A DNA stretch of 62,084 nt, taken from positions 1-62,084 of the IMG/VR virus record IMGVR_UViG_3300032267_000768; one strand, given 5' to 3'. Made by a program: the position numbers and the translations under genes. Positions 1 through 19,682 of the stretch are shown here, piece by piece; positions within the stretch are counted from its first letter, which is position 1; every line of letters starts with the position of its first letter. The notes below the pieces were generated by a model. It had not been told where the DNA came from. It saw only the letters and a program-made list of their open reading frames with translations, and made no database searches. The stretch comes from a virus. Its lineage: Duplodnaviria; Caudoviricetes.

Positions 1-24
1 ACAATTAATTCCTAATATTCTCAT
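1..24 (-). CDS. 5' end of a probable carbamoyltransferase (NodU/CmcH-like), truncated by the window edge
   Basis: ATG at 24 reads MRILGINC, resembling the MxILGI(N/S) N-terminus of this family. Only 8 codons are visible; it follows a PFIY microprotein. Confidence 0.45.
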
Positions 25-25
25 T

Positions 26-130
26 TTATTTGTAAATGAAAGGATCTTTCTTTTTTAATTCTTTTAAACGTTTACGATATTGTCGTTCTAATCGTATTTT
101 GTTTATTAAAGATTTAAGCCAACCTAACAT
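26..130 (-). CDS. 34-aa basic microprotein (not in ORF track)
   Basis: MLGWLKSLINKIRLERQYRKRLKELKKKDPFIYK*, with an AGGAGA Shine-Dalgarno at 140-135; fills the gap between neighbours exactly. Confidence 0.75.
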   Translation of the reverse strand: MLGWLKSLINKIRLERQYRKRLKELKKKDPFIYK

Positions 131-138
131 ATTATCTC

Positions 139-933
139 CTATTGTTGATTATAAAGTTTTAAAAATTTATCTTTTATTAGTCCCGCAGCATCTGCATGCG
201 CAGCGTCTAATGGATGTGTAGTACCCCGAGGATACTCGTTGAGCAACGACCATTGATTAAATCCCATCTGTCTCTCTCCAAATACTACCCATTTGTTAAA
301 GTCTATTTCATTATATAGACCATTTAGTAATGAATCACTTGCATTTAACGGTTTTAATTCGTCCCAAAATAAACTATTGTCGGCTAGAGTAAACATATAT
401 GGTATTTTTTTCTTTTCTAAAATATTTTGTAACCATATAATATTCTTCCAACTCAGATAGGCTTCGTGGTATTGATTAGCAGCATGACGATAAAGAGCAT
501 CAGCAAAAGGTCCTACTCCAGTACTTTTGGTATTTTCTCTTCGTCTTTTCCATTCTTCCAATTGAGGTTCACTGTTAGATAATGTTTTTTGAACTTCTGC
601 TTGATTATCAGAGGTATCCCATGGAGTTATAGTAGCCCATCTAGTTCCTTCTAACACATTGTGTCTAGGCATAGCCCAATCATAACGAGATAGGAAACTC
701 CACATAGCAGTAACAAAAATATCTTTGTCAGGATTTAAAGAAATATAAGAAAAAAGTTTTCTAGCTATACCAGAATTTCCTATTCCGGCTTTAGCTACAC
801 AAACGTATTCGGCGTTTGTTTCTTTAGCTAATAGAGCTGACCAAGATTTTGAAGATGGTATTTTTCCATTATCATCACTTAATTCGTGTCCAAAAGTAAA
901 GCTGCAACCCCCTGCTAATAATGTTCTATTCAT
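139..933 (-). CDS. SGNH/GDSL-like hydrolase or acyltransferase
   Basis: Block I-like GGCSFTFG, block II-like AGIGN, C-terminal THP..AH. Confidence 0.65.
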   Translation of the reverse strand: MNRTLLAGGCSFTFGHELSDDNGKIPSSKSWSALLAKETNAEYVCVAKAGIGNSGIARKLFSYISLNPDKDIFVTAMWSFLSRYDWAMPRHNVLEGTRWATITPWDTSDNQAEVQKTLSNSEPQLEEWKRRRENTKSTGVGPFADALYRHAANQYHEAYLSWKNIIWLQNILEKKKIPYMFTLADNSLFWDELKPLNASDSLLNGLYNEIDFNKWVVFGERQMGFNQWSLLNEYPRGTTHPLDAAHADAAGLIKDKFLKLYNQQ

Positions 934-2098
934 AAATTTTTAAAAAATTATTTAACTCTGGAAAAATATTAGAAAATTTTTCTTTTCTGTATTCATCTGT
1001 TCTTTTTATTCTTCTTTTTCTTTCTGTGTTTATTTTATCAGAATATCTATCCTCTATATTCATAAAATTAATTATAGATCTATATGGGGGTAAATCTTTA
1101 TATTTTTCTGTTACAATTTTTTTAAGCTCATTAGGCAATGTTTGAATATTAAAACACTCTGGAGCAAACAATGTATTAACATGAAAATATTTTGGATTGT
1201 ATTCTTTTACCCAATTTAATAATTTGTCTAAACTTAAAATGTTAAAAATGTTTATAGTTGAGCATATTTGAAAATCTATGTTACCTGTTTGTGTGGATCT
1301 TATACCAAACTCTTTTAAATTATTTTTAACAATATCCCATTTAGCAGGATGACGCTGATATTCAAATGCTGCTTCTGTATCATCAATACTAAATGCTATT
1401 TCTACATTCTTAAATTGACTCCACATCCAAAATATTTTTATAGGAGGCAGTTGAGTACCATTAGTATTATAATGTATATTTTGATTACGAGCATAACCTT
1501 GCTCCACACAATGTTCTAATATTTTAAAATGATTTTCTATCATAAATGGTTCACCACCTGTAAATTCAAAATATTCTACATCTTTTAGTACAGGTTTAAT
1601 GTCTTCAAAGAAAGCAGGATTACGTTTGGGCCATTGTCCTGAATCTAAATTCTGTTTGGCCACAGGATTAGTACCATAGTCTAATTCTTCCTGAGCCCAT
1701 TTAGAGCTGCTGTAACTGCCGCATATACGACATTTTAGATTACACACATTGCCTAGTTTAAAATCAATAAATTTTAGAGATGGTTTTGATTCAGGAGTCC
1801 ATTCATTTAAACTATTTTTCATTTTGTAATAGCTGTTCATTCTTTTGGATACTTTACCTGCATCTTCTTCTTGCCAACAACTAGTACATCCTTTAGGTCT
1901 TTCACCTCGGCGGAATTGATCTCTCAAATTGTTCATATATTCTGAATCTTGTATGACATCGAGATTATCTTTATATACTTTATAATCTCCTATTTCTCCG
2001 TTGTATAGACAGCAAGGTGATGCAGAACCATTTACATCCACTTCCAACGAAGTCCATGGCAGTACGCACATGTTAGATTTTATATATTTTTCCACCAT
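926..2098 (-). CDS. Radical SAM protein with N-terminal twitch/SPASM-like domain
   Basis: CNLKCRIC (CX3CX2C), FTGGEP, YNTNG; N-terminal CVLPW..PCC..CTSC. Confidence 0.9.
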   Translation of the reverse strand: MVEKYIKSNMCVLPWTSLEVDVNGSASPCCLYNGEIGDYKVYKDNLDVIQDSEYMNNLRDQFRRGERPKGCTSCWQEEDAGKVSKRMNSYYKMKNSLNEWTPESKPSLKFIDFKLGNVCNLKCRICGSYSSSKWAQEELDYGTNPVAKQNLDSGQWPKRNPAFFEDIKPVLKDVEYFEFTGGEPFMIENHFKILEHCVEQGYARNQNIHYNTNGTQLPPIKIFWMWSQFKNVEIAFSIDDTEAAFEYQRHPAKWDIVKNNLKEFGIRSTQTGNIDFQICSTINIFNILSLDKLLNWVKEYNPKYFHVNTLFAPECFNIQTLPNELKKIVTEKYKDLPPYRSIINFMNIEDRYSDKINTERKRRIKRTDEYRKEKFSNIFPELNNFLKIYE

Positions 2099-3384
2099 TC
2101 CAATAATCTTTCATCGGTTAATATTTTTTTAATATCTGTGCCTCGAATAGTATCAATTTGTTCACATCTAGTTTTACCACTGCGAATGCCTATTTCCGCT
2201 TTGGGATATTCTTCCCAAAATGTAGCACGAGTTTTCATATTCTCTAGAACATCTATTAAACTCTGTTGTAGAGGAGTTGCTCGTGGTCGAATATAAGCTA
2301 GATTTTCATCTATAATTTCATTTAATAGTGTTTTTGGCAGACACATTGGTGACATTATCTGCTGAGAATCAAATGCAAATGTAACTTTGGTTAAAAGTTT
2401 AGCATTCAATTGTTGAGATAGATCAAACATATTACGAATTTCTTGTAAACCAGGCATTGTAATTGTAAAGTCTAACTGCATCTGTCTTTTATTACGAGCT
2501 ACAGCTAATCCTTCTCGAAAGTTATCTAAGAATTTTTTGTAGTTTAATCCTGTTCTAATGTACTCTCCAATCTCTCCTGTACCATCAATGGAAGCACACA
2601 CTTGCCAATCGCGGAATTGTCGTAATAATTCAAAGAGTTTTTTACCTTTAAATTCCGTACGACTTAAATTGGTATTATATCTTACATAAACCCTATCGCT
2701 AAATTTTAAATCAATAATTCTAGCCATGGCATCCCAATGTATATCCCACATTAAGGGTTCTCCACCTACCCAATAAATCTCTTCCATACGTTTTTCTTCT
2801 ATAGCATTCATAAATTCCATAACCACTGTGCTGTCTTGAAAGAGAGAAATTTGTTGTCTTAGTGGTGATGCCATCCATGGTTGACGTTCTGGTGACCACA
2901 TGTCATGGTTTCTTTGTTCTGATTCCCAACTAGAGCTCAGCATATCTCCGCATTGACGACATTTAAAATTACAAAGATTATTGAAACGATAATCAAAACT
3001 TACAGTTTTCATCTCTGTATAACCTGTATCATCAGTCTTAGCAAAAGCATCATCTATCTTGTGACGGAAAAGATTGTTAAAATAATCTCTATAAACATCA
3101 GTATTGAGCAATTTATCATTGCATACTTGACATTCTGGTAGAATTTCTCCAGCCATCATTCTTTTTCGTACACTCCGCATATGCTCATTGTTCCAATGCT
3201 GTTCTAGTGTTTCAGGATTATATTCTTTTAAATCACCTTCTCTGTCGATATATTGACGAAAACTTTGAGCTGGTTCTCTAGAAGCACAACACATTCTTCT
3301 CTCTGTTTGTGGAGAGAGATAGGTATGCGTCCACGGAGCCATACAAAATGCTTGGTTGCCTTCTACAGGTTTAATTTTTTTCAT
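2080..3384 (-). CDS. Radical SAM protein with N-terminal twitch-like domain
   Basis: CNFKCRQC, VGGEP, YNTN; N-terminal CMAPW..MCC..CQVC. Confidence 0.9.
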   Translation of the reverse strand: MKKIKPVEGNQAFCMAPWTHTYLSPQTERRMCCASREPAQSFRQYIDREGDLKEYNPETLEQHWNNEHMRSVRKRMMAGEILPECQVCNDKLLNTDVYRDYFNNLFRHKIDDAFAKTDDTGYTEMKTVSFDYRFNNLCNFKCRQCGDMLSSSWESEQRNHDMWSPERQPWMASPLRQQISLFQDSTVVMEFMNAIEEKRMEEIYWVGGEPLMWDIHWDAMARIIDLKFSDRVYVRYNTNLSRTEFKGKKLFELLRQFRDWQVCASIDGTGEIGEYIRTGLNYKKFLDNFREGLAVARNKRQMQLDFTITMPGLQEIRNMFDLSQQLNAKLLTKVTFAFDSQQIMSPMCLPKTLLNEIIDENLAYIRPRATPLQQSLIDVLENMKTRATFWEEYPKAEIGIRSGKTRCEQIDTIRGTDIKKILTDERLLEWWKNI

Positions 3385-4663
3385 ATTTTTCGAATAATTC
3401 TTTTAATTCCGGAAATACTTCTAGAGTATTTTCTTGTCTAATATTGTCATATTTTCTAGTCATTTGAAAAAATTCAGGCAAATTTTTTATATTATCTTTC
3501 ATCCACATCCAATTAAGAGCACTTTCATATCCTTTAGTTGCTCGTGTTAAAGGATCTTTATCTTTAAGCCATTCTATGTGTGTTTTGTATTTCTTATCCA
3601 CTTGTTCTTTATATTCTTGTGGTAGATTGTCCATTCTTTGGGCTTTGGGCCATTGTAACAAATTAAAATTAAAATCCATGGGTTTTATTAATCCTTGATC
3701 TGCCCATGATCTATGAAAATCTACCACGTGAAGAGCATTAATCAATCCTACAGTAGCACTGATATAAAAATCTACTTTAGGACAAATTTCTATCATTCTT
3801 TTTCTATTTTCTATTATATCTTTCCACACAGTGCCTTTTCTCATGAGTTCTGCTCTTGCACCTTCTGCGTCTAAACTCGCCCCTACAGATACTGTGTCAA
3901 ATTTGTTCCATAACTCTAACACATCCATATCTTTAAAAGTTAATTTACTAAAATTAGTGTTGTACACCAATCTCACGTGATACATCTTCCTACGATCTAA
4001 TTCTTTTAATATTCTGTAATGTTCTTCCATTATTAATGGTTCCCCACCTGCAAAATAGAACTGTTCCACGTGATCAAACTGTGTCAACATCTGTTCCCAC
4101 ATATCGTCTGATGTTCTACCTACTTTTAATATTTTTGCATGAGGAGGAGGAGATCCTGTAAGTTTTTTATGATCTTCATACCAATTGGAACTGAACCACG
4201 TGCCACAACTCCTGCAGGCAAAATTACAAAGATTACTAAATCTTATATCCCAATATTTGATTACGAAATCAGCAGTGCCATCTGGTTGTGTAGCATCTGT
4301 TAATCCTATATTATGCCCGAAATGTTTGTTAGAACTTAATCTTAAACTAAAAAATCCTGCTTTTTCTTGGTCATAACATTTGCCACATTCTTTGCAAGGT
4401 TTATTCTCCAGCATGTTCAAACGCATCTGTTTCATTTTGCCACCATTGAACACATCTTCTAGAGATTCTTTGTTTAGATCTCCTACAGGATAAGCATCAA
4501 ATGCAAAACAGCAAGGATAGGCTCGGCCGTCTGGATAAGCGTGTAGATGCATCCACGGCAACATACAGAATGTATCGCTCTTTAGCAATAATTCTTTTTG
4601 ACGTTCAGTCATATTTTTAATCTTTAATTTTTCGGGCTCTTTAGCCCCATACTCATAAGCCAC
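3371..4663 (-). CDS. Radical SAM protein with N-terminal twitch-like domain
   Basis: CNFACRSC, AGGEP, YNTN; N-terminal CMLPW..PCC..CGKC. Confidence 0.9.
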   Translation of the reverse strand: MAYEYGAKEPEKLKIKNMTERQKELLLKSDTFCMLPWMHLHAYPDGRAYPCCFAFDAYPVGDLNKESLEDVFNGGKMKQMRLNMLENKPCKECGKCYDQEKAGFFSLRLSSNKHFGHNIGLTDATQPDGTADFVIKYWDIRFSNLCNFACRSCGTWFSSNWYEDHKKLTGSPPPHAKILKVGRTSDDMWEQMLTQFDHVEQFYFAGGEPLIMEEHYRILKELDRRKMYHVRLVYNTNFSKLTFKDMDVLELWNKFDTVSVGASLDAEGARAELMRKGTVWKDIIENRKRMIEICPKVDFYISATVGLINALHVVDFHRSWADQGLIKPMDFNFNLLQWPKAQRMDNLPQEYKEQVDKKYKTHIEWLKDKDPLTRATKGYESALNWMWMKDNIKNLPEFFQMTRKYDNIRQENTLEVFPELKELFEKYEKN

Positions 4664-6002
4664 GGTACCACTCTCCTATTCTTGTAAATGTTTTTGCAAA
4701 ATCTTTGCCTCGTCTCTCATCATATTGTTTATAGAAATTTTTAAAGTCAAACCTTAATCTTGGTAAATCGAATGCCTCAGAATGCGGTGTTTTAACCACA
4801 TCTAGATAATCTATCAATCTTTGCACGTGTGCTATTTCCATAAACTCGCAATGATCTATATTTTTATCCAACCATTGAGATAAGTTGTCTTTAAATTCTG
4901 TTCTTAAATAGTCTGGCAATACTAGGGGAGATTGGAAGCTGGGAAATCTCAATATGTTTAAAGTAAAGTTTACATCTACTCCATAAACTCTTTTAGCGTC
5001 TAATTTATTTCTCACAATAACATCTAGAAACTGAGGCAATGATTCTAGACATAGAGCATTTATGGTACACATGTTGTGCAATCCTGCAGGTTTTATTTGA
5101 TTAATTACATTAACAAAATTTACATACCAACGAGTATAATCTATACCATCTCGAATATAATCTGAGTGAGCATACGTTGATTCATTAGAAGTATAGATAT
5201 GTAGATTTTTTATTTTTTTACATTTATCTATAAATTTTTCAAATAATTCTGCCTTGGGTACTAGGTTAGAGTTAATAGCCAATCTCATATTAGGATTAAT
5301 TCGTTCTCCCTGTGTTTCAAACCAATCTAATAGTCTCCATAAAGATGGTGACATCATGGGTTCTCCGCCTGTAATTCGTAACTCATCTAATGTTTTATGT
5401 AAATCAGAATCCCACCATTTAAAAAATGCTTCTACATAAGGATTAGTTTCTTCTAATTTGTATAATTGAGTACCATCGTGTGAATGTGTAAAATGATTTC
5501 TACCATCTGATATTAAATTTTTATAAGGACCATGCTGTTTTATATCTTTTGCCCAAGTGGTACTAAATGCAGGGTTACAATAGGAACAAGCAAAATTACA
5601 TGTTCTATCGAAAGCAATCTCTAGAGTTTTAAGATCAACATCTTCAGTGATAGGAGTATTGAATGCCCGTTCTAGATCTGCATCCGAATAAATTTTACTT
5701 TTATAAACTCTATCACTCACAGCATCTCTGCCCATGTCTTCTATCTTCCAGCAATATTCACAACCTGCAGGTCTTTCACCAGCAATCATTTTAGCACGAT
5801 CCTGTTTCTTTTGAGGAGTGTTATGTAATAATCGAGGATTATCTTTTAATTTTTTTGCATCCACTTGATGTGCAGGTGGATGATGACAACTGGTACTCAT
5901 GCCAGAGCCTAACCATATAGTAGCATTGTACCATTTGGCTCCACAGAAACTGGGAGATAGAGAGTCTAATACTTGTTTACGATATTCTAGGTCTTTATTC
6001 AT
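4653..6002 (-). CDS. Radical SAM protein with N-terminal twitch-like domain
   Basis: CNFACSYC, TGGEP; N-terminal CGAKW..SCHHP..CEYC. Confidence 0.9.
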   Translation of the reverse strand: MNKDLEYRKQVLDSLSPSFCGAKWYNATIWLGSGMSTSCHHPPAHQVDAKKLKDNPRLLHNTPQKKQDRAKMIAGERPAGCEYCWKIEDMGRDAVSDRVYKSKIYSDADLERAFNTPITEDVDLKTLEIAFDRTCNFACSYCNPAFSTTWAKDIKQHGPYKNLISDGRNHFTHSHDGTQLYKLEETNPYVEAFFKWWDSDLHKTLDELRITGGEPMMSPSLWRLLDWFETQGERINPNMRLAINSNLVPKAELFEKFIDKCKKIKNLHIYTSNESTYAHSDYIRDGIDYTRWYVNFVNVINQIKPAGLHNMCTINALCLESLPQFLDVIVRNKLDAKRVYGVDVNFTLNILRFPSFQSPLVLPDYLRTEFKDNLSQWLDKNIDHCEFMEIAHVQRLIDYLDVVKTPHSEAFDLPRLRFDFKNFYKQYDERRGKDFAKTFTRIGEWYRGL

Positions 6003-6630
6003 TGTTTTTAATTATTGTATAAACCTTATCAGCCCAAAGTTTATTTTGTTCCTTGTTCATGTGATTGATTATACCTTTACCCCAAGGCATAGTGGCTCCT
6101 CCAGCTGGAGCGTGTTCAGTTAACGATGAAGCATATAAACTCTCATCTATGAATATACCACTCTTTAATTTTATACCAGCATCCTTGCCTGCTGTTTCAA
6201 ACGGTCTGAAACTCCACATCTGTACAATTGTTTTATTTTTTGTTTTAGATAATATGTCATGGTCAAACCATTTAACAGCATATTCATATGACAGCTCATC
6301 TTTGTCATAATTGTGTAGATGTATCCAATACTGTTCAAGAGCTTCATAAATTTTAGTATCTACTCCTTCTACTGGGTCGGTGTTAGCAGATAATATTACA
6401 GATGGATGATACAATCTATAAGGTTCTGTATAACATAAAACACAGATGTCAGGTAATTTATTTGCTTTGTTTAGTTGATTAAATTTAAAAAAAATACTCC
6501 ATATGCTTCTACCAGGTTCTCCCCAATGAGTTATTTGAGCATTCAGTTGATCGGCTAATAATACACACCAACTCTCAGGTTCTCTTCCGGCACAAAAACT
6601 ATCTCCAAAAAATCCTATAGTTTTTCTCAT
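5995..6630 (-). CDS. SGNH/GDSL-like protein
   Basis: FFGDSF block I, GEPGRS, C-terminal NH; overlaps both neighbours as in an operon. Confidence 0.6.
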   Translation of the reverse strand: MRKTIGFFGDSFCAGREPESWCVLLADQLNAQITHWGEPGRSIWSIFFKFNQLNKANKLPDICVLCYTEPYRLYHPSVILSANTDPVEGVDTKIYEALEQYWIHLHNYDKDELSYEYAVKWFDHDILSKTKNKTIVQMWSFRPFETAGKDAGIKLKSGIFIDESLYASSLTEHAPAGGATMPWGKGIINHMNKEQNKLWADKVYTIIKNNE

Positions 6631-8021
6631 AGATTTTTACACTCCTGCCAAAATTCCTGCATCTCAGGAAAGGTTTGTTCAAAACTTGTGCCACGTCTGC
6701 GATCATGTTCTGCAAAAAATGCGTAAAAATTCTTTTTTTGCGTAGTATCTTGTTCTGCGTGCTTGCGCCAGTAAGCAAGATTGCGCTGCATCTTTTGTAT
6801 CTCAAAGTCTTTAAACAATGAGAAATCCAATCTAGTTTCTGTCGCTTGTTTAGGACCAATCTGCTCTTGATGTTCCATCATCCATTTGATGTTGTCTTCA
6901 TGTATGCGCTGATATGATTCTGGCAGTAGAGTAATCTGTTGCCACAAGGGTTGACGCAACAGAGGAATATCAAACCACACTCGCTGATAGGTTTTTGAAT
7001 GTTCTGATCTTAATAAACGTATATCCTTGAGTAATCTATCCAGTGAAGTAACACTTAAATTATTATAGGTAATAATAAATGTGACAGAATTACGCACAGG
7101 TATGCTGTGTAGGAATTCATTCACGTTGTCCATAAATTGATTATAATTCAATCCGTTCCTTATGTATTCTGCTGGTGCTCCATGAGCATCTACAGATACA
7201 AATTGCATGAAATGTTCCACTTTTTCATCTAGACATATCCTTTTGACTTGATCAAAATACTTGTTTTTTAATTTAACATCTGGAGGACACATATTAGATG
7301 TAACATTCAAATGCAAATCTTTTTTAGGATGATTTATAATGTAGTCAAACACTCGATAGGTATTCACATCCATCATGGGTTCTCCACCAGTCATGCGGAA
7401 ATGTTTTAAATTTTTATATAATTCTGGCCACCAACGCCAAAATGCTTCCACATAAAGATTGGGTTCTCTGTTGAGTATGGGTTTTCTTCTGCCTGTAAAA
7501 TGTTCGGGTGCATTATGTGCTGGAGCAGTAGGGTACGCTCCATGTATTTCTATTTCTTTACCCCATGCTGTGGAGAATTGTGGTGAACAATAGCTGCATT
7601 TAAAATTACAAGCATTATTAAAGTTCACTTCCACATAACGAGGCACATGAGTTCTATCTAAAGGATTGTCTCGAATCTTTTCAAAGTCCATCATGGCCCA
7701 GGGCTCACCAGAACGATAGTGGCGATCACTCATCTCGCCTGTGTCTTCCATTTTCCAGCAATAGGAACAGCCTACAGGTCGTTCTCCTGCCAGCATTTGT
7801 TGTCTTTGTTTAATCTTTTCTTCTGTGTTGTGCAGTGCTGCTGGATTGTCTGCTAGACTATCAGCATCTATTTCGTGCAATGGAGGATGATAACAAGAAT
7901 TTGTGAGTCCTGTAGGCAGATGCAAGGATACTTGATTCCATTTAGCTAGACACATGGTAGGACTTATTCTTTCTAATTCTTTTTTTGCTTCATCTGCTGA
8001 TGCTTTATAAACACTACTCAC
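6627..8021 (-). CDS. Radical SAM protein with N-terminal twitch-like domain (paralogue of 4653-6002)
   Basis: CNFKCSYC, TGGEP; CLAKW..SCYHP..CSYC. Start revised to GTG 8021 (AGGAG upstream), giving 464 aa. Confidence 0.88.
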   Translation of the reverse strand: MSSVYKASADEAKKELERISPTMCLAKWNQVSLHLPTGLTNSCYHPPLHEIDADSLADNPAALHNTEEKIKQRQQMLAGERPVGCSYCWKMEDTGEMSDRHYRSGEPWAMMDFEKIRDNPLDRTHVPRYVEVNFNNACNFKCSYCSPQFSTAWGKEIEIHGAYPTAPAHNAPEHFTGRRKPILNREPNLYVEAFWRWWPELYKNLKHFRMTGGEPMMDVNTYRVFDYIINHPKKDLHLNVTSNMCPPDVKLKNKYFDQVKRICLDEKVEHFMQFVSVDAHGAPAEYIRNGLNYNQFMDNVNEFLHSIPVRNSVTFIITYNNLSVTSLDRLLKDIRLLRSEHSKTYQRVWFDIPLLRQPLWQQITLLPESYQRIHEDNIKWMMEHQEQIGPKQATETRLDFSLFKDFEIQKMQRNLAYWRKHAEQDTTQKKNFYAFFAEHDRRRGTSFEQTFPEMQEFWQECKNL

Positions 8022-8904
8022 GATCTTGTACTCCTTTATTTCTATGTGGTGTTTGACAGAATTTGTAAAAGCGACTCTGTTCTGCATCTAGATCTGCCAC
8101 AGGCAATCCCAATCTCTGTCTCAGACTGTTTCCATATGACTGCATGTCTGATTCTATATCCATCATCATTCTAGAAAATTTATTACTCATAAATTCTAAA
8201 TCGCTGACCAGTGTGACATCATAGTTTGAGTCTAGCGTGGCCATATAACAGCCACAACGAGCACCCAATATCGCCCATTTACCATTGTCTGCATCAGCAC
8301 CCACACTCATCCATGTGAGTAAGGTTCTTAAATTAATTGGTTGTATAGTTTGCATGAACTCTTCTGGTTTTACTTTTTTTCCTTTATCTAAACTCATTTT
8401 AACACCTTCTCTGTATCCAGCAATAAAAGCCTGCTCAGGAGTGTGATTAATCATTGTAGTGGAATAAACATTGTGTAAATTTTCATGTGGCACAGTCCAA
8501 CAAAAGTCTATTTTGGCTTGTTCATCTTCTGCATTCTCATGTGTTTTCATTTCTAGACAAGTGTTTTTTGGCCAACCTACAATACCTCCATTGCCATATA
8601 TCAATCCATTAATACTGTTCTTTGCTCTCCATCGATGCACAGCCTTAGGATTAGTTTTAGTCCAGTCTAGAGTTTGTAATAGGAAAGCAGGATCTATTCT
8701 ATTGTCTCCATCAATACTAATAAAGAAATCTGTTTCAGACTTTTCAGCAGCAGCCTTGTGTGCATTGTCAAATCCTCGAACACCATGCACTCGTTTTGCC
8801 CATGGCACTATGTTTAATAGATCAGCATAGTTCTCATCAGCATTGGGTTCGCGATAGCTAATGAAAACAAAATCTAAATCACTTATTCGGACGGTATTTG
8901 CCAT
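8014..8904 (-). CDS. GT-A fold glycosyltransferase-like protein
   Basis: FVFISYREP N-terminus, DxD motif IDGDN; start revised to ATG 8904. Confidence 0.65.
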   Translation of the reverse strand: MANTVRISDLDFVFISYREPNADENYADLLNIVPWAKRVHGVRGFDNAHKAAAEKSETDFFISIDGDNRIDPAFLLQTLDWTKTNPKAVHRWRAKNSINGLIYGNGGIVGWPKNTCLEMKTHENAEDEQAKIDFCWTVPHENLHNVYSTTMINHTPEQAFIAGYREGVKMSLDKGKKVKPEEFMQTIQPINLRTLLTWMSVGADADNGKWAILGARCGCYMATLDSNYDVTLVSDLEFMSNKFSRMMMDIESDMQSYGNSLRQRLGLPVADLDAEQSRFYKFCQTPHRNKGVQDRE

Positions 8905-9221
8905 GTGTACCCTTCTTCCACTATTCCTGTAGGCCAATAAGGATCGTTATCTTGTAGATCATATCCTCGAACAGCTTTGCCTAACATAGGAAATACTCTG
9001 TGAGTTCTTTTTTTAGGTTTCTTTTCAATAGAACCATTGTAGATAAAATTATTAATACCATTGTCTAACAAAAACTTATAATTTTCCTGTGTAATTTTTA
9101 CAGTGTTATTATTTGCTTCTCTGCACAGAGACACAATCTCTGTATTAACAACTTCTATATAGAAGTTATCGTCCGGCGGAGAAGGTTTAAAATCGTTTAA
9201 TGCTTTAAAAAATTCTGTCAT
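8883..9221 (-). CDS. Hypothetical protein
   Basis: 112-aa ORF overlapping both neighbours in the operon. Confidence 0.7.
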   Translation of the reverse strand: MTEFFKALNDFKPSPPDDNFYIEVVNTEIVSLCREANNNTVKITQENYKFLLDNGINNFIYNGSIEKKPKKRTHRVFPMLGKAVRGYDLQDNDPYWPTGIVEEGYTWQIPSE

Positions 9222-10011
9222 TTAAGATATCTATCATTTTTTTATTGTGGTAGTGCCAAATACGGTTTAGTCTACGTCCACCCACGTATATTCTATCATC
9301 TATTGATATGGGATTGAGATAATTGTATTGGTCCGCTGCATTTTCTACAGCATTTATTTCAGGTTTGCCGTGTATAAACTTAAACCATGGATAGTCTATC
9401 AGATGCAGTTGTAATGGATCCATGATTCTATAAGCTAGTGCATACACTATGTCTGTAGAAGGATACTGCTCATGACAATTTATTAACAACTCATTTTTTA
9501 CCTGTGTCCAATTCTCAGTTATATCTCTGCAAATTTTAAAAAACTGCATAGCTCTTTCGCTGTGTCTAAAATAGGTCAATCCATTATATACATCTGGTAG
9601 ATTATTTTGATAAAATAATTTTCTATAGGGTGTTTTTTTGATCACATTGTCTTGATAATTTCTACAATTTACAGCAAACACAAGATCATGCTGACCTAAA
9701 TAATTCCACCACCAATCTGTGTCAGCAGTAAACAGCATGTCTGCTTCTAATTTTATAGTATGCGTAAATGGTGATAGTTTAAATGCTTTATATTCATTAG
9801 CGAATTTTAATAATTGATTTTCGCTGTGATCCTGTTTCAAAACGATTACCGTGTCCACATGTTCACTCTGTATTTTTGTATGCTCGTCCACGACCACGCA
9901 CACAGAATTAATCTTGCAATGCGCCTTGATGGATTTGGCCAATGCGATACTCAATGCAGCATAGTCAGTGGTGTCGTTGTTCTGTGCAAACCAAAGAAAC
10001 CCTTTAGACAT
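9205..10011 (-). CDS. Glycosyltransferase-like protein (GT8-like)
   Basis: SPFTHTIKLEADML, YNGLTYF. Start revised to ATG 10011 (AAGGAG upstream). Paralogue of the next gene. Confidence 0.65.
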   Translation of the reverse strand: MSKGFLWFAQNNDTTDYAALSIALAKSIKAHCKINSVCVVVDEHTKIQSEHVDTVIVLKQDHSENQLLKFANEYKAFKLSPFTHTIKLEADMLFTADTDWWWNYLGQHDLVFAVNCRNYQDNVIKKTPYRKLFYQNNLPDVYNGLTYFRHSERAMQFFKICRDITENWTQVKNELLINCHEQYPSTDIVYALAYRIMDPLQLHLIDYPWFKFIHGKPEINAVENAADQYNYLNPISIDDRIYVGGRRLNRIWHYHNKKMIDILNDRIF

Positions 10012-10762
10012 TGAATGGTATCTCCTTGTCCAACACATGCACATCTTGATCTGATATCAAATTTACGAACTTGTCATGTTTAAATGTCAGTCCATGCTGG
10101 TCTATTTTTACAATTTGCGTGTCCACGGGCAACATGGCCATTGCAGATGGCATAAAATATTGTTTTGTAAATCCGTTTAACTGATGCAATGCTATAGCAA
10201 AAGCATAATCATTCCTAAAATTACGAAAATCTATTCTATATAGATTACAGAAATAATCATAGTGCTGTTGAATGTGTTGAATCATATCGAAAATTTTTCT
10301 TACAAACGGAGTTTTTTTAAAAATAGTCACTGTGGCCCACACTAGAGGGATCATGCTCTTTGTTTCATAACGAAAACTATCTCTATTGGTAAGATCATGC
10401 ACTCTATCATGCAATAAAAATTCACGTTCACTGTCTACATATGCCAGTAAATTATCTGTGTAAACGAAATAATCAGCATCTAAAAGTATAGTGGTATCAT
10501 AGGGAGAATGATCATAGGCCATGGCTCGCTCTAGATTGTACCATGGAATTTGTTTGTTCTTGTAATAACGTCGATTACCCTGAGCATTTTCTATAATTAC
10601 AAGTTGATCTGCTCCTTGAATATTTCTTTCTGTGTCTCTGTTGGTCACTACTGTGACAGGTAATTGTAAATTTTTTTTGATCTGCTGTATGCAAAAATTA
10701 GCAGTGTGATGATACTGCAATTGATCCGAATCGAAACAGTAGATTAACGCTCCCAATGACAT
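10004..10762 (-). CDS. Glycosyltransferase-like protein (GT8-like)
   Basis: SPYDTTILLDADY DxD motif, RNDYAFAIA. Confidence 0.7.
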   Translation of the reverse strand: MSLGALIYCFDSDQLQYHHTANFCIQQIKKNLQLPVTVVTNRDTERNIQGADQLVIIENAQGNRRYYKNKQIPWYNLERAMAYDHSPYDTTILLDADYFVYTDNLLAYVDSEREFLLHDRVHDLTNRDSFRYETKSMIPLVWATVTIFKKTPFVRKIFDMIQHIQQHYDYFCNLYRIDFRNFRNDYAFAIALHQLNGFTKQYFMPSAMAMLPVDTQIVKIDQHGLTFKHDKFVNLISDQDVHVLDKEIPFNV

Positions 10763-10764
10763 TT

Positions 10765-11079
10765 TTATATTTTTTTCTTTAATTGCTGATGCAATTGATG
10801 ATATTCGTTGAGTGTTTCTTGATTACGCTGTATTAAAATATTTAAAAATGCTGTTGGATCAGTAATTTCACATGGATTATCATTGACATCTAGTATGAAA
10901 AATTTATCATGCTGTTGTTTTAATACACTAACCACGTTGATGGTGTTAGCATCTGCACAAAAAAGATGATTGTTGTATGCCACGATCTGTCGTGATTTGG
11001 CTCGTTCCAGTGCATTCTTCTTAGCAGTGGCAATGTCAAAACTAATGTCAGATTGATTGCGTAAAGACTCAATGTCCAT
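10765..11079 (-). CDS. Hypothetical protein, first gene of the modification operon
   Basis: 104-aa ORF directly after a sigma70-like promoter. Confidence 0.75.
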   Translation of the reverse strand: MDIESLRNQSDISFDIATAKKNALERAKSRQIVAYNNHLFCADANTINVVSVLKQQHDKFFILDVNDNPCEITDPTAFLNILIQRNQETLNEYHQLHQQLKKKI

Positions 11080-11085
11080 ATCTGT

Positions 11086-11114
11086 ATTATACAGTTAATT
11101 ATGGAAAAAATCAA
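11086..11114 (-). promoter_or_regulatory. sigma70-type promoter, probably giving a leaderless mRNA
   Basis: TTGATT(11114-11109)-17 nt-TATAAT(11091-11086)-6 nt-ATG. Confidence 0.7.
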
Positions 11115-11129
11115 CCTGGTAAAAAGTTT

Positions 11130-12098
11130 TTATACTGTGGTATTTGATACTTGTGCAGTGGCACTTGGAGTGTACACCGTGGCAAGACCTTCTGCTGTGG
11201 TAGGATTCACAGTTTTCAGTATCACATTGGTGGTACCAATAAAATTAGCATACTGATCCACTGAATCTGTGTTGCCTGCTGTGTATTCACTGTCACCCGC
11301 ATCCGGATCCACTATGGAAGTCTTGATCGTTACCACTATAGCAGAACCTGCTGCTGCATCTGCCTTGGCTTCTATTTTAAAATACATAGTGGTGTATGTG
11401 CCTGAATTTTGTGTTAACTCTAAAATGGTCTGATATGACGTGGTGAGATCATAGAAACCAATAGCAGTTCCATCTGTGCTGAGTGTCTCTCCCGATCCAG
11501 ATCTGGAAGAAGTCTGTGATTTCAATTGGAAGTTACCCAATCCTGTGATTAACTCACTCACTGATGAATCTTTAGATGTGGCTGCTGTGCCAGCATTGGT
11601 GGTTCTTGTGATGTTGATCTGTATCTTGCCGCCCGCATTGAAGAAGTAGCGAGCTTGATTGGCATTGGTGAATGTGATAGAGTGTTCCACTGTGTGTGAT
11701 CCCGCATATCGAACAGATGATGTTGAAGTTTGTAGAGCTGCTGATGTGCTGAGTGCTGTGGCATTGGGACTGCCATTAGCCACTGATGATGCCAGTGTGG
11801 TCAAGTCAGCTACCAGAGCTGCTTTGACAGCGATGACATCTCCTGCTGCTTTGGCTGCTGTGGATGTTAGAGTGTCGTTGGTGTGATTGGCCACGTTGTC
11901 CATGGCTGCAAATAATGAATTCCATTGAGCTGCTGTGATATTTTCTCCTACTGCAACTGAACTTAATGCTGTCTGTCCTAATCCCCATTGTAGAGCACCT
12001 GTACCAAATGTATAATTGATACCTTTTGGAGTAGACGTGCTATTTAAAAAATTATTGTATTCTTGATCTAGTATTTTATCACCAACTGTATAACCCAT
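11130..12098 (-). CDS. Virion structural / tail-associated protein
   Basis: Thr/Ser/Ala-rich, ITAAQWNSL and ARYFFNAGG motifs; last gene of the fibre cluster. Confidence 0.65.
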   Translation of the reverse strand: MGYTVGDKILDQEYNNFLNSTSTPKGINYTFGTGALQWGLGQTALSSVAVGENITAAQWNSLFAAMDNVANHTNDTLTSTAAKAAGDVIAVKAALVADLTTLASSVANGSPNATALSTSAALQTSTSSVRYAGSHTVEHSITFTNANQARYFFNAGGKIQINITRTTNAGTAATSKDSSVSELITGLGNFQLKSQTSSRSGSGETLSTDGTAIGFYDLTTSYQTILELTQNSGTYTTMYFKIEAKADAAAGSAIVVTIKTSIVDPDAGDSEYTAGNTDSVDQYANFIGTTNVILKTVNPTTAEGLATVYTPSATAQVSNTTV

Positions 12099-12099
12099 A

Positions 12100-13716
12100 T
12101 TATTTCACTCCTACTACACACTCTGTTAATTCTAATAGTGCATTATATTTATCACTAATCAGTCTACCCAGCACGTTAAATGCTGTGCATTCATTTAGCT
12201 GTGCTACTCTAGCAACTCCGGGGATTTGACTGGATACTATGCGATCTCCTGCTGTGCCCGCCCCTATTACTTTTACTCTGGTTCTACCTTTGAGAGCGAT
12301 CATAGGATGACTGTCATCATTACCAGCATCTTTGTTCATTAAAAACGCTGGTTTTTCAGAAACCACACCAAATACTCTGTGATCTAACTCTTGTGTGGAT
12401 TTGCTTATTTCTTTTGATCCACCCAGTATCACCACATCACCTGATTCTAATGGCATGTCTGTGGCATAACGCTCTGCCAAATCCGCATACTGAGCTGCTG
12501 TGGAAGTTGCATGCACTATGTTGGCTCTGATATCTACCAATGTGGGAGAAGCAATCTCTCCTTGGTCTCTGAATGCAGTCCAAGCACCACCAGCATTACC
12601 ATAACGAGTTGTACCATCATCTGCAAATGTTTCATCCCAAACCCAAAATAGATTTTCATTTACTCCGCCAGCTGCATCACTTCTTCTAACTTTTAATCCA
12701 GAATAGTTGGGCATGGCCGCAGCACTAGAAATATTTCTATTCAACTCAATGATGTTGTCTTCTATGGACAGTGTTTGGGTTTCCACAACCACTTGTGTGC
12801 CTGTGATTGTTAATCTGCCTGCCACTGTAAGATTTGGTATAGAAACATGCCCTGTTGATCCAGTGATGGTCATTGCTGTGGTTTCGGTATCTCCACCTTT
12901 GTTTACTCTAAATAATATATTTCCGTTGCTGGTGTTGTTCTGTAACACCACATTGGATCCCCCTGTTACTCCTAATAATGCATCTGAACTTGCTCCTACT
13001 AATAGTCCGTCATCTGCAGCGATAGTGAATTGATAGTTTGTGGTTTCTGCTGCGTTGGATCTTAAGAAATCACTTGTGGCTAATCCACCAAATAATTCTG
13101 AATTGGTCGCAGTGCCTACAAATTTTGCTCCCACTATGCTGGTGGAATTCATGGTTATACCTTTGTAAATTGTAGTGAACCCTGCTAATGCAGTTAAAGG
13201 AGTAAATTGTTCTCTAGAAATTGTGGCCACAATCTGATCATCAACCACTAATTTTAATAAAGATTTATAAACACCCACGTTGTCACGAACACTGTCTGGA
13301 ATAACTTGTGTAACTCCACTACCTGACACTGTGGTTGGTCCAATCAACTGCCATGCAGTGCCTGAATACACATACAACTGACCGTTGCCTGTGTCAAACC
13401 ACATGTCTCCAGCATTGGCACTGGTGGGTCTAGCAGTGCCCACTGTGCTGCTGCCTACAGGTTTAAATTTTGATCCATTCCAAACTTTAATTTGATTTGT
13501 AAGTGTATCATACCACAGTTGTCCTTTAATTTTTTTTGCCGGTGCTGCGGTGTTGGCAAAATTTTCTAATACCTTAATAAAGTTTTCATTAAGTCTTTCA
13601 CCAAATCCTGCATATCCTTTTCCGAATAGAGCCAAATCCGTAGTGGAGATATCCACTGTGCCATCTTTTAGCACTACTAGTTTTGTTCCGTCCGTTTTGT
13701 TTATGGTATAAGACAT
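12100..13716 (-). CDS. Tail fibre protein with C-terminal intramolecular chaperone/autocleavage-like domain
   Basis: Shared N-terminus YTINKTDG..GKGYAGFGE..GQLWYD; C-terminal YADLAERY..VFGVVS..IALKGR. Confidence 0.8.
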   Translation of the reverse strand: MSYTINKTDGTKLVVLKDGTVDISTTDLALFGKGYAGFGERLNENFIKVLENFANTAAPAKKIKGQLWYDTLTNQIKVWNGSKFKPVGSSTVGTARPTSANAGDMWFDTGNGQLYVYSGTAWQLIGPTTVSGSGVTQVIPDSVRDNVGVYKSLLKLVVDDQIVATISREQFTPLTALAGFTTIYKGITMNSTSIVGAKFVGTATNSELFGGLATSDFLRSNAAETTNYQFTIAADDGLLVGASSDALLGVTGGSNVVLQNNTSNGNILFRVNKGGDTETTAMTITGSTGHVSIPNLTVAGRLTITGTQVVVETQTLSIEDNIIELNRNISSAAAMPNYSGLKVRRSDAAGGVNENLFWVWDETFADDGTTRYGNAGGAWTAFRDQGEIASPTLVDIRANIVHATSTAAQYADLAERYATDMPLESGDVVILGGSKEISKSTQELDHRVFGVVSEKPAFLMNKDAGNDDSHPMIALKGRTRVKVIGAGTAGDRIVSSQIPGVARVAQLNECTAFNVLGRLISDKYNALLELTECVVGVK

Positions 13717-13722
13717 TTATTT

Positions 13723-13902
13723 TTAGTTGCTTTCGTTATCTCTCACATGTACTAAAAAGCTAACATCTCCTAGTAACTTGATTAGGATTGCTGCTAGTTC
13801 TGGTGTCAATGCTTGATCTATTTTTACAAGATCATCAGCAGTTAAACTAGACTGATAATTTGCATTGATATAATCAGCTACTTGTTGTTTTGTTATGGCC
13901 AT
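13723..13902 (-). CDS. Small hypothetical protein (59 aa)
   Basis: Start revised to ATG 13902 (MAITKQQV), with AAGGAG upstream. Confidence 0.65.
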   Translation of the reverse strand: MAITKQQVADYINANYQSSLTADDLVKIDQALTPELAAILIKLLGDVSFLVHVRDNESN

Positions 13903-13922
13903 TTGTTGTTTCTCCTTATTAA

Positions 13923-14756
13923 TTATCCTTGTTTTGTAGAATACAGTGTCAGCCAATTGTTAAACTTTTTGGCTAAAAAAGGTTTTGCTATAGTGCCTAT
14001 AATAAAGCACATGCCTTCTCCTACTATTCTAACAAATTTACCCAGTATATCACTTTGAGCTCTTGTTCCTATTTGATATGCTATCTCATTGGTTCTAGCT
14101 TGAGCAATGATTCTAATTGTTTTTACAAATAAAGAATCAACTTTTGTTTTGTAATTTTTTTCCATATAGTGTACCAGTGGACATGCCCATATCCAATAAC
14201 CTATTTTGGTATTATCACTCAAGTATTGTACACTGAATTGGGTATCCATTGCAAGATCTTCTGGAGAAAATAGACCATTGTTTCTTAACCAGGTGCATAT
14301 AACTCTACCATTGGTATATTCTAATGCTTCTAACATTTCCACAATTTTTACCACTGCAGTATTTTTATCGTTGTTTCTTAAAGAATTTAGAATGTCTCTA
14401 ACATATCTTTCGTAATATCCTTGCCATATGATTCTATCATTTTGATGTATGCCTCTGATTTGTGTTACTATTTTTTCTGCTCTTACATAATATTCTACCA
14501 TTTTATCTTCGTTAATATATTCTCTGAATGCTTGTAATAGAGCAAAGTCAGCCTGTGCTGATGCATTATTTTCATCTGGTGTAAATGGTGTTGTTTTTGT
14601 TCTAGTGGGTAGATGATATGCTAGAATTGAATTATAAAATATGCAATTGTCTTCACGACTTAATAGGGTAGATACACAATGCTCTTCATCTCCATGCTCT
14701 TGACATTGAGCACAGGCCTGTCTATTGTGTAGATATTCTTCAACTGATATTCCCAT
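13923..14756 (-). CDS. Hypothetical protein with CFI-box-CTERM-like and VICT domains
   Basis: Start revised to ATG 14756 (TAATG overlap). LLQAFREY..VEYYVRAEKIV, then GRVICTWL..GYWIWA, similar to the upstream gene's C-terminus. Confidence 0.7.
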   Translation of the reverse strand: MGISVEEYLHNRQACAQCQEHGDEEHCVSTLLSREDNCIFYNSILAYHLPTRTKTTPFTPDENNASAQADFALLQAFREYINEDKMVEYYVRAEKIVTQIRGIHQNDRIIWQGYYERYVRDILNSLRNNDKNTAVVKIVEMLEALEYTNGRVICTWLRNNGLFSPEDLAMDTQFSVQYLSDNTKIGYWIWACPLVHYMEKNYKTKVDSLFVKTIRIIAQARTNEIAYQIGTRAQSDILGKFVRIVGEGMCFIIGTIAKPFLAKKFNNWLTLYSTKQG

Positions 14757-16258: not shown

Positions 16259-16262
16259 GGAA

Positions 16263-17753: not shown

Positions 17754-17759
17754 GCTGTA

Positions 17760-17766
17760 TATTTAT
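17760..17766 (-). promoter_or_regulatory. Putative late (gp55-type) promoter
   Basis: ATAAATA 6 nt upstream of the fibre ATG; the T4 late consensus is TATAAATA. Confidence 0.55.
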
Positions 17767-17820
17767 TTCATTTTACAAATAACGTTTTAAAGGGTTTTTG
17801 GCGTAATTTAGTTAACTTGC

Positions 17821-17849
17821 TTGATATTGAGCAAATATATATGTATAAT
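17821..17849 (+). promoter_or_regulatory. sigma70-type promoter, probably giving a leaderless mRNA
   Basis: TTGATA-17 nt-TATAAT-6 nt-ATG(17856). Confidence 0.7.
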
Positions 17850-17855
17850 AGCATA

Positions 17856-19653: not shown

Positions 19654-19682
19654 AGATAAAAAATTATATAATATCTAGTACA

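Follow-up and report, generated by a model that had tools for sequence, protein, structure and literature searches.

We describe a block of 14 genes at the beginning of a 62,084-base virus assembly (IMG/VR record IMGVR_UViG_3300032267_000768), which was analysed over its whole length and is hereafter called the window. PHROG matches identify the window, i.e. the whole assembly, as a fragment of a T4-type myophage, with a G+C content of 31-42%. At positions 1-11114, directly downstream of tail-fibre genes, the minus strand carries 14 genes which overlap or abut one another from 11079 down to position 1, in the transcription order p104, GT252, GT279, p112, GT307, rSAM5, SGNH_B, rSAM4, rSAM3, rSAM2, rSAM1, SGNH_A, micro34 and the start of a carbamoyltransferase gene (Table 1). 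A preliminary description, made from the sequence alone, had reported at least 14 such genes at this place, including three glycosyltransferase (GT)-like genes, five radical SAM (rSAM) genes, two SGNH-like genes, a microprotein and a carbamoyltransferase-like start. Gene count and positions agree with the list of open reading frames (ORFs), and the comparisons reported below bear out each of these assignments, in the case of the SGNH-like genes indirectly. For two of the genes, the start of the longest ORF probably lies too far upstream: alignments place the likely true start of GT307 at an ATG near 8904 (MANTVRISDLDF) and that of GT279 at an ATG near 10008 (MSKGFLWF), so that the apparent overlaps shrink to a few bases. 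No protein of the cassette has a membrane-span-like segment, the maximum 19-residue hydropathy being 1.32.

Table 1. Positions in the window of the cassette genes, of the adjacent virion genes and of promoter-like signals.
Feature	Position	Strand	Basis or remark
Carbamoyltransferase, first 9 codons (MRILGINC...), cut by the contig end	1..29	-	N-terminus identical to that of syntenic orthologues
micro34, 34-residue basic ORF	26..130	-	Invariant C-terminus DPFIYK
SGNH_A, SGNH/GDSL fold	139..933	-	hhalign to the SGNH_B family
rSAM1, N-terminal-twitch radical SAM	926..2098	-	NF033640 355.3 bits; Pfam SPASM 11-75, Radical_SAM 115-218
rSAM2, N-terminal-twitch radical SAM	2080..3384	-	NF033640 307.1 bits
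rSAM3, N-terminal-twitch radical SAM, top family-model match	3371..4663	-	NF033640 407.2 bits; Pfam SPASM 48.8 bits, residues 33-96
rSAM4, N-terminal-twitch radical SAM, ...SCHHPP... subtype	4653..6002	-	NF033640 292.1 bits
SGNH_B, GDSF at residues 9-12	5995..6630	-	Variable insert in the rSAM5/rSAM4 gap
rSAM5, N-terminal-twitch radical SAM	6627..8087	-	NF033640 319.1 bits
GT307, GT-A (nucleotide-diphospho-sugar transferase) fold	8014..8937	-	Predicted structure
p112, small conserved protein, no detectable family	8883..9221	-	Orthologues in 35 loci
GT279, retaining-type GT-A, glycogenin (GT8)-like	9205..10044	-	Predicted structure and profile
GT252, GT279 paralogue	10004..10762	-	hhalign
p104, first gene of the cassette, viral only, no family	10765..11079	-	
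Sigma-70-type promoter-like site TTGATT-17-TATAAT	11086..11114	-	7 nt upstream of the p104 ATG
fib322, Ser/Thr/Ala-rich fibre-module protein	11130..12098	-	Directly upstream of the cassette
fib538, tail-fibre protein, C-terminal intramolecular-chaperone-like region	12100..13716	-	PHROG tail-fibre families
Late-promoter-like ATAAATA	12146..12152	-	47 nt upstream of fib322
VrlC-like virion protein, 4646 residues	25050-38990		phrog_10938

The synteny survey advocated in the preliminary description was carried out by scanning IMG/VR with rSAM3, which yielded 76 loci (loci bear L numbers throughout), and it shows the same gene order in related contigs. The common order is fib538, fib322, p104, GT252, GT279, p112 (or a 122-residue counterpart), GT307, rSAM5, SGNH_B where present, rSAM4 and rSAM3, followed by rSAM2-rSAM1 or rSAM1-rSAM2 and then by SGNH_A and micro34. 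All five rSAM orthologues were found in 51 of the 55 loci judged to span the array, the four misses being truncated or mislabelled loci, and the rSAM genes run in the order 5-4-3-2-1 in 32 loci and 5-4-3-1-2 in 19. Past the point at which our contig ends, relatives continue with a carbamoyltransferase, an epimerase/dehydratase of the NAD-dependent type, a DegT aminotransferase (E 2.5e-96), an FkbM methyltransferase and a longer GT307-like protein, and often also with a cupin, as annotated by a Pfam scan of cluster representatives. A more distant group (L065-L070) retains four N-twitch rSAMs together with a GT307 homologue in fused form, one further rSAM and a B12-binding rSAM.

All five rSAM proteins match the NCBIfam family NF033640 (N_Twi_rSAM, twitch domain-containing radical SAM protein) over profile positions of about 1-398, with 292-407 bits against a curated cut-off of 170 bits, and each has a CX3CX2C motif together with four conserved N-terminal cysteines. 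In rSAM1-3, a Pfam SPASM-type cysteine-rich domain (residues 11-96) stands ahead of the Radical_SAM core (from residue 115), which is the reverse of the usual domain order. The Pfam model PF04055 (cut-off 29.5 bits) is passed by two of the five proteins (31.0 and 31.6 bits), the others scoring 27.2, 27.0 and 19.1. In an alignment of 40 diverse family members (A6), C146, C150 and C153 of the CX3CX2C motif are invariant, as are the N-terminal C33 and C96, while C52 and C93 are conserved in at least 90% of the sequences. As these four are the only conserved cysteines outside the rSAM core, N-twitch rSAMs would carry one fully cysteine-ligated auxiliary cluster, that is, a twitch domain and not a two-cluster SPASM domain.

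The paralogues are 18-26% identical to rSAM3. In a midpoint-rooted FastTree tree of 170 sequences, whose bacterial members were fished with rSAM3-type motifs and thus form a biased set, rSAM1-5 are distributed over five separate clades, all of which contain sequences from phages as well as from bacteria; clade support is 1.0 for rSAM2 and for rSAM4, 0.92 for rSAM1 and 0.68 for rSAM5, whereas the large rSAM3 clade has only 0.04. To judge from their sequences, rSAM1-5 are old, anciently diverged paralogues. The family itself is large: a profile search of 1.84 billion cluster representatives (50%-identity clusters) returned 9,433 family proteins at E-values up to 1e-30, many of which are tandem fusions of two N-twitch units. 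Fusions of two or more units run to 560-1400 residues, and one Elusimicrobia bin (L110, L112, L113, L126, L132, L138) contains more than 10 contigs with fused N-twitch rSAM genes. Outside the family, the best NCBIfam matches of the rSAM cores are weak and concern viperin, AhbD, NirJ and MoaA.

The GT and SGNH assignments were made by structure prediction and profile comparison. The AlphaFold model of GT279 (pLDDT 92.7) is matched by Foldseek to glycogenin-1 and glycogenin-2 (GT8) over about 270-280 columns (E 1e-8, probability 1.0, TM 0.50-0.55), with GT6 ABO transferases next, and the sequence profile of GT279 finds glycogenin weakly in the PDB (E 0.008). GT252 is recognised through its homology to GT279 (hhalign 99.1%, E 1e-18, 245 columns) and has an invariant D95-A-D97. 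GT307 is predicted to adopt a GT-A fold at residues about 13-180, with an invariant D76-G-D78 and a helical C-terminal half. Its fold matches include viral GT-A enzymes at 10-13% identity, among them PBCV-1 A64R (PDB 2p6w/2p72/2p73), designated in its PDB title as a glycosyltransferase of major-capsid glycosylation, and a Che8 glycosyltransferase. By structure comparison GT307 is GT2-like and GT279 is GT8-like; at profile level, GT307 shows no relation to GT279. Profile searches of PDB sequences with the GT307, GT252 and SGNH_A alignments (A1, A3 and A4) gave nothing meaningful.

SGNH_A has an invariant S11 in GGCSFTFG, invariant G50 and N53, and a DAAH block ending in the invariant H246. Its alignment matches that of SGNH_B (A4 versus A5) at 99.7% in hhalign (E 1e-25), and relatives of SGNH_B in alignment A5 match Pfam Lipase_GDSL_2 (9/23), Lipase_GDSL (6/23) or DUF6071 (12/23). 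The SGNH blocks are represented by the serine of GDSF in SGNH_B and by S11, N53 and the H246 of DAAH in SGNH_A, and the two proteins are tied to the Pfam GDSL models transitively. The SGNH_B orthologue cluster covers 11 related loci. As for the gene cut by the contig end, carbamoyltransferases located at the same position in two relatives (L010 and L003) begin with the MRILGINC seen at the window edge; these eight residues are the N-terminus of Pfam-confirmed carbamoyltransferases found in the same place in relatives, such as the one at L028:15253-16734 (Carbam_trans_N 8e-43, Carbam_trans_C 8e-54). The carbamoyltransferase ATG overlaps the micro34 stop (ATGA). Among the small proteins, p104 finds only viral hypothetical clusters in an Atlas search, the nearest named family being DUF4376 at 0.90, a lead only, and p112 has no family in Pfam, NCBIfam or PHROGs and nothing in the Atlas. 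Instead of being a cassette gene, p104 might encode a chaperone for the assembly of the fibres.

The best-conserved gene of the block is micro34, the neighbouring proteins being 35-60% identical. E15, Y18 and R19 are invariant in micro34, as is the C-terminal DPFIYK (23/23 aligned sequences), and an ORF ending in DPF[IVL]Y[KR] is found in 59 of the 76 viral loci. In 54 of these 59, the ORF lies at most 60 nt downstream of SGNH_A; an equally short distance upstream of a carbamoyltransferase is seen in only 7 of 55, owing to variable genes that intervene. By its position, micro34 is therefore linked to SGNH_A no less strongly than to the carbamoyltransferase. The 65 bacterial loci yielded no short ORF ending in DPF[IVL]Y. 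A 14-kb contig binned as Gammaproteobacteria carries a 72-residue acidic ORF (L106:5602-5820) ending in ...IRKSDPFIYR, whose stop overlaps the start of a carbamoyltransferase and which comes after three N-twitch rSAMs and a DUF6071/SGNH-like gene. The ORF represents an extended version of micro34, on a contig that may be of phage origin.

Relatives of the rSAM genes also occur in bacteria. A one-genome-per-species scan with an rSAM3-type alignment, which is biased to rSAM3-like genes, gave 339 confirmed stretches, the best 80 of which correspond to 74 loci. Nine of them (L077-L085), at 47-75% identity to rSAM3, have the appearance of phage DNA within metagenome bins. The other 65 (L086-L150) are 35-46% identical to rSAM3 and lie partly on contigs of 0.1-4.3 Mb from Bdellovibrionota, Bacteroidota, Elusimicrobia, Acidobacteriota, Gemmatimonadota and others; 35 of these 65 loci have at least two N-twitch rSAM ORFs. 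Their neighbours, scanned as cluster representatives plus singletons within two genes only, include GT2, GT4 and GT9 glycosyltransferases, Wzm/Wzt, UDP-glucose dehydrogenase, epimerase/dehydratase, DegT, nucleotidyltransferase, phosphomannomutase, PIG-L and polysaccharide deacetylases, UDP-GlcNAc 2-epimerase, SGNH/GDSL proteins, PhyH-type dioxygenases, methyltransferases and B12-rSAMs, as well as carbamoyltransferases in five loci. At least one glycan-type neighbour is present in 30 of the 52 bacterial loci having at least four other ORFs, a count made without a background control. A recurrent module in Bacteroidota (L114, L125, L129, L140, L148, L150, L116, L121) comprises an N-twitch rSAM, an SGNH-like protein, a prenyltransferase of the UbiA family, GT4, an epimerase/dehydratase, a 345-residue unknown and UDP-glucose dehydrogenase, and is often found next to Wzm/Wzt and numerous paralogous PhyH-type dioxygenases; L121 encodes a 1080-residue fusion of UbiA, GT4 and GDSL domains.

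Cultured phages provide a further example. In Vibrio phage K566 (OZ196521.1, L231, 155829-174743; 255 kb), four ORFs match the rSAM-alignment profile (E 4e-55 to 2e-37), and these candidate N-twitch rSAMs are interleaved with ORFs that by eye resemble nucleotide-sugar transferases and look GT8-like. The sister phage K567 gives the same match, and the two phages appear to carry a smaller version of the cassette. A gene annotated as PagP lies near the rSAM group of K566.

The cassette is closely tied to the fibre gene upstream of it. A fib322 profile (alignment A8) was run against IMG/VR and the best 80 of 565 candidates were analysed, some of their contigs being shared with the rSAM3 scan. Among the 61 of these 80 fib322 loci with at least 4 kb downstream, a GT307 homologue is present in all 61 and an rSAM5 orthologue in 60, the single miss being a locus that ends too early. 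This linkage persists down to a fibre identity of 28-30%, on contigs of about 30 to 354 kb, a pattern consistent with a portable module equipped with its own acceptor, for which fib322 would be a candidate. An orthologue of fib538 scores just under the cut-off of Pfam Peptidase_G2 (1.6e-5, 24.9 bits, cut-off 25).

The T4-type late motif ATAAATA occurs eight times in the window, six of them within 150 nt upstream of structural-gene starts (including 17760 for fib496 and 12146 for fib322), and not once in window 1-11100. Upstream of p104, a promoter-like site scored against the consensus TTGACA-N16-18-TATAAT matches at least 10 of 12 positions in 28 of 39 distinct orthologous regions, versus 29 of 780 random windows of the same loci, and at least 11 of 12 in 15 of the 39 regions versus 1 of the 780 windows. 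In the T4 paradigm, sigma-70-consensus promoters are early promoters, and the cassette is therefore probably a transcription unit of its own, expressed early. The preliminary description had placed the block directly downstream of the tail-fibre genes: the adjacency stands, but the block does not merely end the fibre operon, as it has its own conserved sigma-70-type promoter, and the late-promoter-like motifs stand before the fibre genes.

In 11 of the 39 upstream regions, each belonging to a distant group of relatives, a strong hairpin (fold z at or below -2) holds the -10 box in its loop and is followed, by eye, by a run of T; the arms of the hairpin vary between phages. This element, which lies within 90 nt upstream of the p104 orthologue in L040, L042, L047, L050, L055, L059, L062 and others, looks like a terminator of the fibre transcript, in which case terminator and promoter would be combined. 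The group to which the window belongs has only a short AT-rich palindrome, CTGTAT-A-ATACAG, across the -10 box, and read-through from the late fibre promoter is therefore possible there.

What the cassette does has to be read from its gene content. Because it encodes three GT-A proteins and SGNH and carbamoyl tailoring functions, because its relatives add sugar-nucleotide enzymes, and because its bacterial counterparts lie in polysaccharide loci, we consider it likely that the cassette specifies a pathway that assembles and tailors a glycan. The preliminary description had proposed just such an assembly line, building a heavily modified glycan on virion proteins or on the host surface or DNA. 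The GT-A folds, the sugar genes of relatives and the bacterial polysaccharide loci all speak for the assembly line; the caveat then made, that the substrate cannot be read from sequence, holds.

Under this reading, a self-contained set of soluble cytoplasmic enzymes would build a short glycan and then edit it heavily. The three GT-A transferases, two of them glycogenin-like and retaining and the third GT307, would join sugars from nucleotide-sugar donors, some of which, in relatives, may be supplied by the epimerase/dehydratase-family enzyme and the DegT aminotransferase and would include an amino-deoxy sugar. Each of the five rSAMs would then use a 5'-deoxyadenosyl radical to take a hydrogen atom off a sugar carbon, the four-cysteine auxiliary cluster presumably serving electron transfer. 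Sugars would thus be the rSAM substrates. The five rSAMs form a fixed and non-redundant set and most likely catalyse different radical steps on sugar carbons, one each. These would be edits that need no oxygen, for instance an oxidation, an epimerisation, a deoxygenation or the formation of a C-C bond. The SGNH-fold proteins may attach or strip O-acyl groups, and the carbamoyltransferase, in a module with the 34-residue peptide, may O-carbamoylate the product. Transcription would start from the sigma-70-type promoter of the cassette, with late fibre read-through as a second possible source in the window's group.

Three observations favour the phage's own fibre proteins, fib322 and fib538, as acceptor: the cassette accompanies them in phages that differ widely, it contains neither a membrane nor an export component, and it has GT-A enzymes akin to viral GTs, for example PBCV-1 A64R. 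We therefore regard a virion-decoration module as the preferred reading of the target, with a confidence that stays somewhat under an even chance. The full proposal, in which the five N-twitch rSAMs perform five different radical edits on a glycan attached to the phage's own tail fibres, is more demanding, and we give it a probability of roughly 0.3.

Several observations weigh against this proposal. The cassette has its own conserved, early-type predicted promoter, and in 11 of 39 relatives a terminator-like hairpin lies between the fibre gene and the cassette; both argue against a simple fibre operon and keep modification of the host envelope alive as an explanation. The fibre-cassette linkage could be inherited synteny. 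We found no N-twitch rSAM with a known reaction, so that action on sugars is deduced from gene neighbourhood only, and among the bacterial loci the other 22 of 52 show no glycan gene in the neighbours scanned. Within the bacterial loci as a whole, blastp (E up to 1e-3) finds no homologue of GT307, GT279, GT252, SGNH_A, p104, p112 or the fibre proteins, and Pfam scans of the neighbours show no fibre protein beside bacterial rSAMs; a Peptidase_S74 (endosialidase-chaperone) domain occurs in one neighbour cluster, in two loci (L143 and L149). As regards the GTs, GT279 has E100-A-D102 in its alignment in place of DxD, and Pfam GT8 models match none of the 41 members of the GT279 alignment (A2) and none of the 39 members of the GT252 alignment (A3). 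More generally, none of the nine non-rSAM ORFs of the cassette has a direct match in Pfam or NCBIfam, PHROGs give nothing useful for them, and the sugar-nucleotide genes lie outside the window, being seen in relatives.

Among the other explanations, the leading one is that the glycan pathway acts at the cytoplasmic face on lipid-linked host precursors (lipopolysaccharide [LPS] core, O-unit or capsule) and alters the surface of the infected cell, which would block superinfection or prevent released virions from re-adsorbing. An early-type sigma-70 promoter suits host takeover, and GT8-type enzymes include LPS-core transferases. Bacterial members of the family lie in Wzm/Wzt, GT4 and UbiA loci for exported polysaccharides, and a host-envelope role is how the GTs of the pelagimyophage host recognition cluster have been read in print, in the available text of that paper (PMC7029224). 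The cassette itself, however, encodes no flippase, polymerase, transporter or membrane protein, and it stays nearly the same in phages with fibres that share no more than about 30% identity, from T4-like phages to contigs of 354 kb. As these phages presumably infect different hosts, the explanation needs an acceptor common to those hosts. We consider it a serious possibility, albeit an improbable one.

Decoration of the fibres also has to be set against the production of a free small molecule, an aminoglycoside-like or nucleoside-like pseudo-oligosaccharide which would act on competitors or on host metabolism without being bound to a macromolecule. The combination of rSAM, DegT, carbamoyltransferase and methyltransferase, with a B12-rSAM in some relatives, resembles that of aminoglycoside clusters, and a cyanophage group of GT, DegT, rSAM and amidinotransferase genes is read as 'antibiotic synthesis genes' in the accessible part of a recent paper (PMC12801897). 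The transferases of the cassette are of the GT-A type (GT8-like and GT2-like), and the scanned cluster representatives include no cyclitol synthase or exporter. Natural-product glycosyltransferases, for their part, are usually GT-B. We thus hold a free product to be unlikely.

Still less probable is that the rSAMs modify a peptide or protein, either micro34 as a RiPP-like precursor or residues of the fibres, the GTs being accessory. The strong conservation of micro34 with its invariant C-terminus would fit, and many SPASM/twitch enzymes are peptide maturases, to some of which the rSAM cores show their weak NCBIfam matches. But Pfam and NCBIfam scans of the window and its relatives detected no RRE/PqqD-like domain or protein, micro34 follows SGNH_A and precedes the carbamoyltransferase and is not beside an rSAM gene, the bacterial loci lack a short ORF of its kind (the 72-residue ORF of L106 being the one longer case), and the bacterial rSAM neighbourhoods are of the glycan type. 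DNA hypermodification, in which GTs and tailoring enzymes would decorate a modified phage base for escape from restriction, would suit an early-type promoter, and phage GTs placing diverse glycans on DNA have reportedly been described by Pyle and colleagues in 2024, but it is hardly credible here: the cassette lies in the structural/fibre region and not among nucleotide-metabolism genes, its bacterial homologues lie in polysaccharide loci, and PF00303 (thymidylate-synthase/dCMP-hydroxymethylase) is present in only one of five related records, itself a weak point as the other four are 29-55% complete.

Overall, the cassette is a real and strongly conserved feature that is only partly described in print. 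The island is what has been named the host recognition cluster (HRC) in pelagimyophages and cyanomyophages. According to the available text of Zaragoza-Solas et al. 2020 (PMC7029224), the HRC is variable, lies downstream of VrlC and contains fibre genes, GTs and rSAM cassettes, and its GTs were read as O-chain modifiers. The window has a VrlC-like protein followed downstream by fibre genes and the cassette, the gp14 end lying beyond the contig. T4-like environmental genomes with up to 12 rSAM genes are mentioned in the accessible portion of Nishimura et al. 2017, and the corresponding portion of the 2025 cyanophage paper takes the GT/DegT/rSAM/amidinotransferase group as cell-wall and 'antibiotic' genes (PMC12801897). 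As far as the available text of these three papers goes, none analyses the N-twitch family, the fixed five-gene set, the promoter or the bacterial counterparts, and the HRC paper (PMC7029224) does not dissect the rSAM cassette. Our search also found no published paper on family NF033640 (N_Twi_rSAM), either under its names or in connection with O-antigen, carbamoyltransferases or polysaccharide biosynthesis. With NF033640, the five rSAMs of the window share an end-to-end match, the four-cysteine N-terminal domain and the CX3CX2C core; whereas NF033640 is a catalogue entry only, five old paralogues here form a fixed phage set.

Twitch/SPASM rSAMs acting on sugars exist, BtrN being an example, and a review by Grell and colleagues from 2015 is said to cover such enzymes. 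The preliminary description had cited BtrN as a sugar-acting twitch rSAM, and part of this comparison stands: an rSAM core with one fully cysteine-ligated auxiliary-cluster domain is common to BtrN and the cassette rSAMs, and a carbohydrate substrate is plausible for the latter. Their auxiliary domain, however, precedes the core, whereas that of BtrN is C-terminal, and nothing in the sequences points to BtrN in particular. The likeness of PBCV-1 A64R and Che8-type virion glycosylation to GT307 is at the level of the fold, and those systems are without radical SAM enzymes. Virion glycosylation in mycobacteriophages was reportedly treated by Freeman in 2023. The glycans sit on the C-termini of capsid and tail-tube subunits, according to the available part of a further report (PMC12619734). 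The resemblance of GT279 to glycogenin, extensive as it is in the model, comes with an identity of 10-14%, the ExD motif and no Pfam GT8 match. Bacterial polysaccharide loci offer the same mix of rSAM, SGNH, carbamoyltransferase, epimerase/dehydratase, DegT and GTs as the phage cassette and its relatives, but they add membrane and export parts (UbiA, Wzm/Wzt, PMT_2) and have GT2/GT4 enzymes instead of the phage GTs.

Phages are known to encode the glycosylation of DNA, O-antigen conversion and, in a few cases, the glycosylation of virions, and we know of no such system that uses radical SAM chemistry. If a fibre glycan is indeed edited by the five rSAMs, it would be the first radical-SAM-tailored virion glycan, and the cassette would be a portable module for host recognition or shielding, common to T4-like and jumbo aquatic phages and related to the surface-glycan pathways of predatory and other bacteria. 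Solving a single N-twitch reaction would probably expose new oxygen-independent sugar chemistry and annotate thousands of genes. Identification of the target would tell if the abundant myophages of fresh and marine waters decorate their own fibres or remodel the surface of their hosts, a matter of consequence for host range and for superinfection in major lineages of the plankton, and the cultured Vibrio phages K566 and K567 make the question testable at the bench.

Elsewhere in the window, PHROG matches include baseplate wedge and hub proteins, a gp55-like late sigma factor, SbcCD-like nucleases, a portal protein and a prohead protease. A DNA search of a phage collection with window 1-11200 found no matching record, and tblastn with rSAM3 returned only four records, every one below 25% identity. 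Four lake-water RNA libraries, from four studies, contain contigs 90-99% alike to window 1-18000, located on the fibre genes and on parts of the cassette; no listed contig bridges the fib322/p104 junction. As such contigs show no starts, strand or level, and DNA may be present in these libraries, the matches indicate at most the presence of close relatives in those libraries, which points to fresh water.

A divergent gene group on the plus strand (17817-21624) begins 64 nt from fib496. It contains a sixth radical SAM gene of 350 residues, without a twitch domain (PF04055 32.4 bits; phrog_21308), a weakly QueC-like PP-loop protein (E 4.5e-5), a phrog_1962 glycosyltransferase (20231-20929) and three unknowns. 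As homologues of the 350-residue rSAM are located within the rSAM array of distant relatives, this group may belong to the cassette system. Between the fibre genes, on the minus strand, lie a 500-residue protein (14756-16258), which combines long stretches of glycine with a C-terminal segment that is hydrophobic (hydropathy of at most 1.67, reached at residue 480), and a 292-residue unknown (13923-14801); both are kept in a minority of relatives only.

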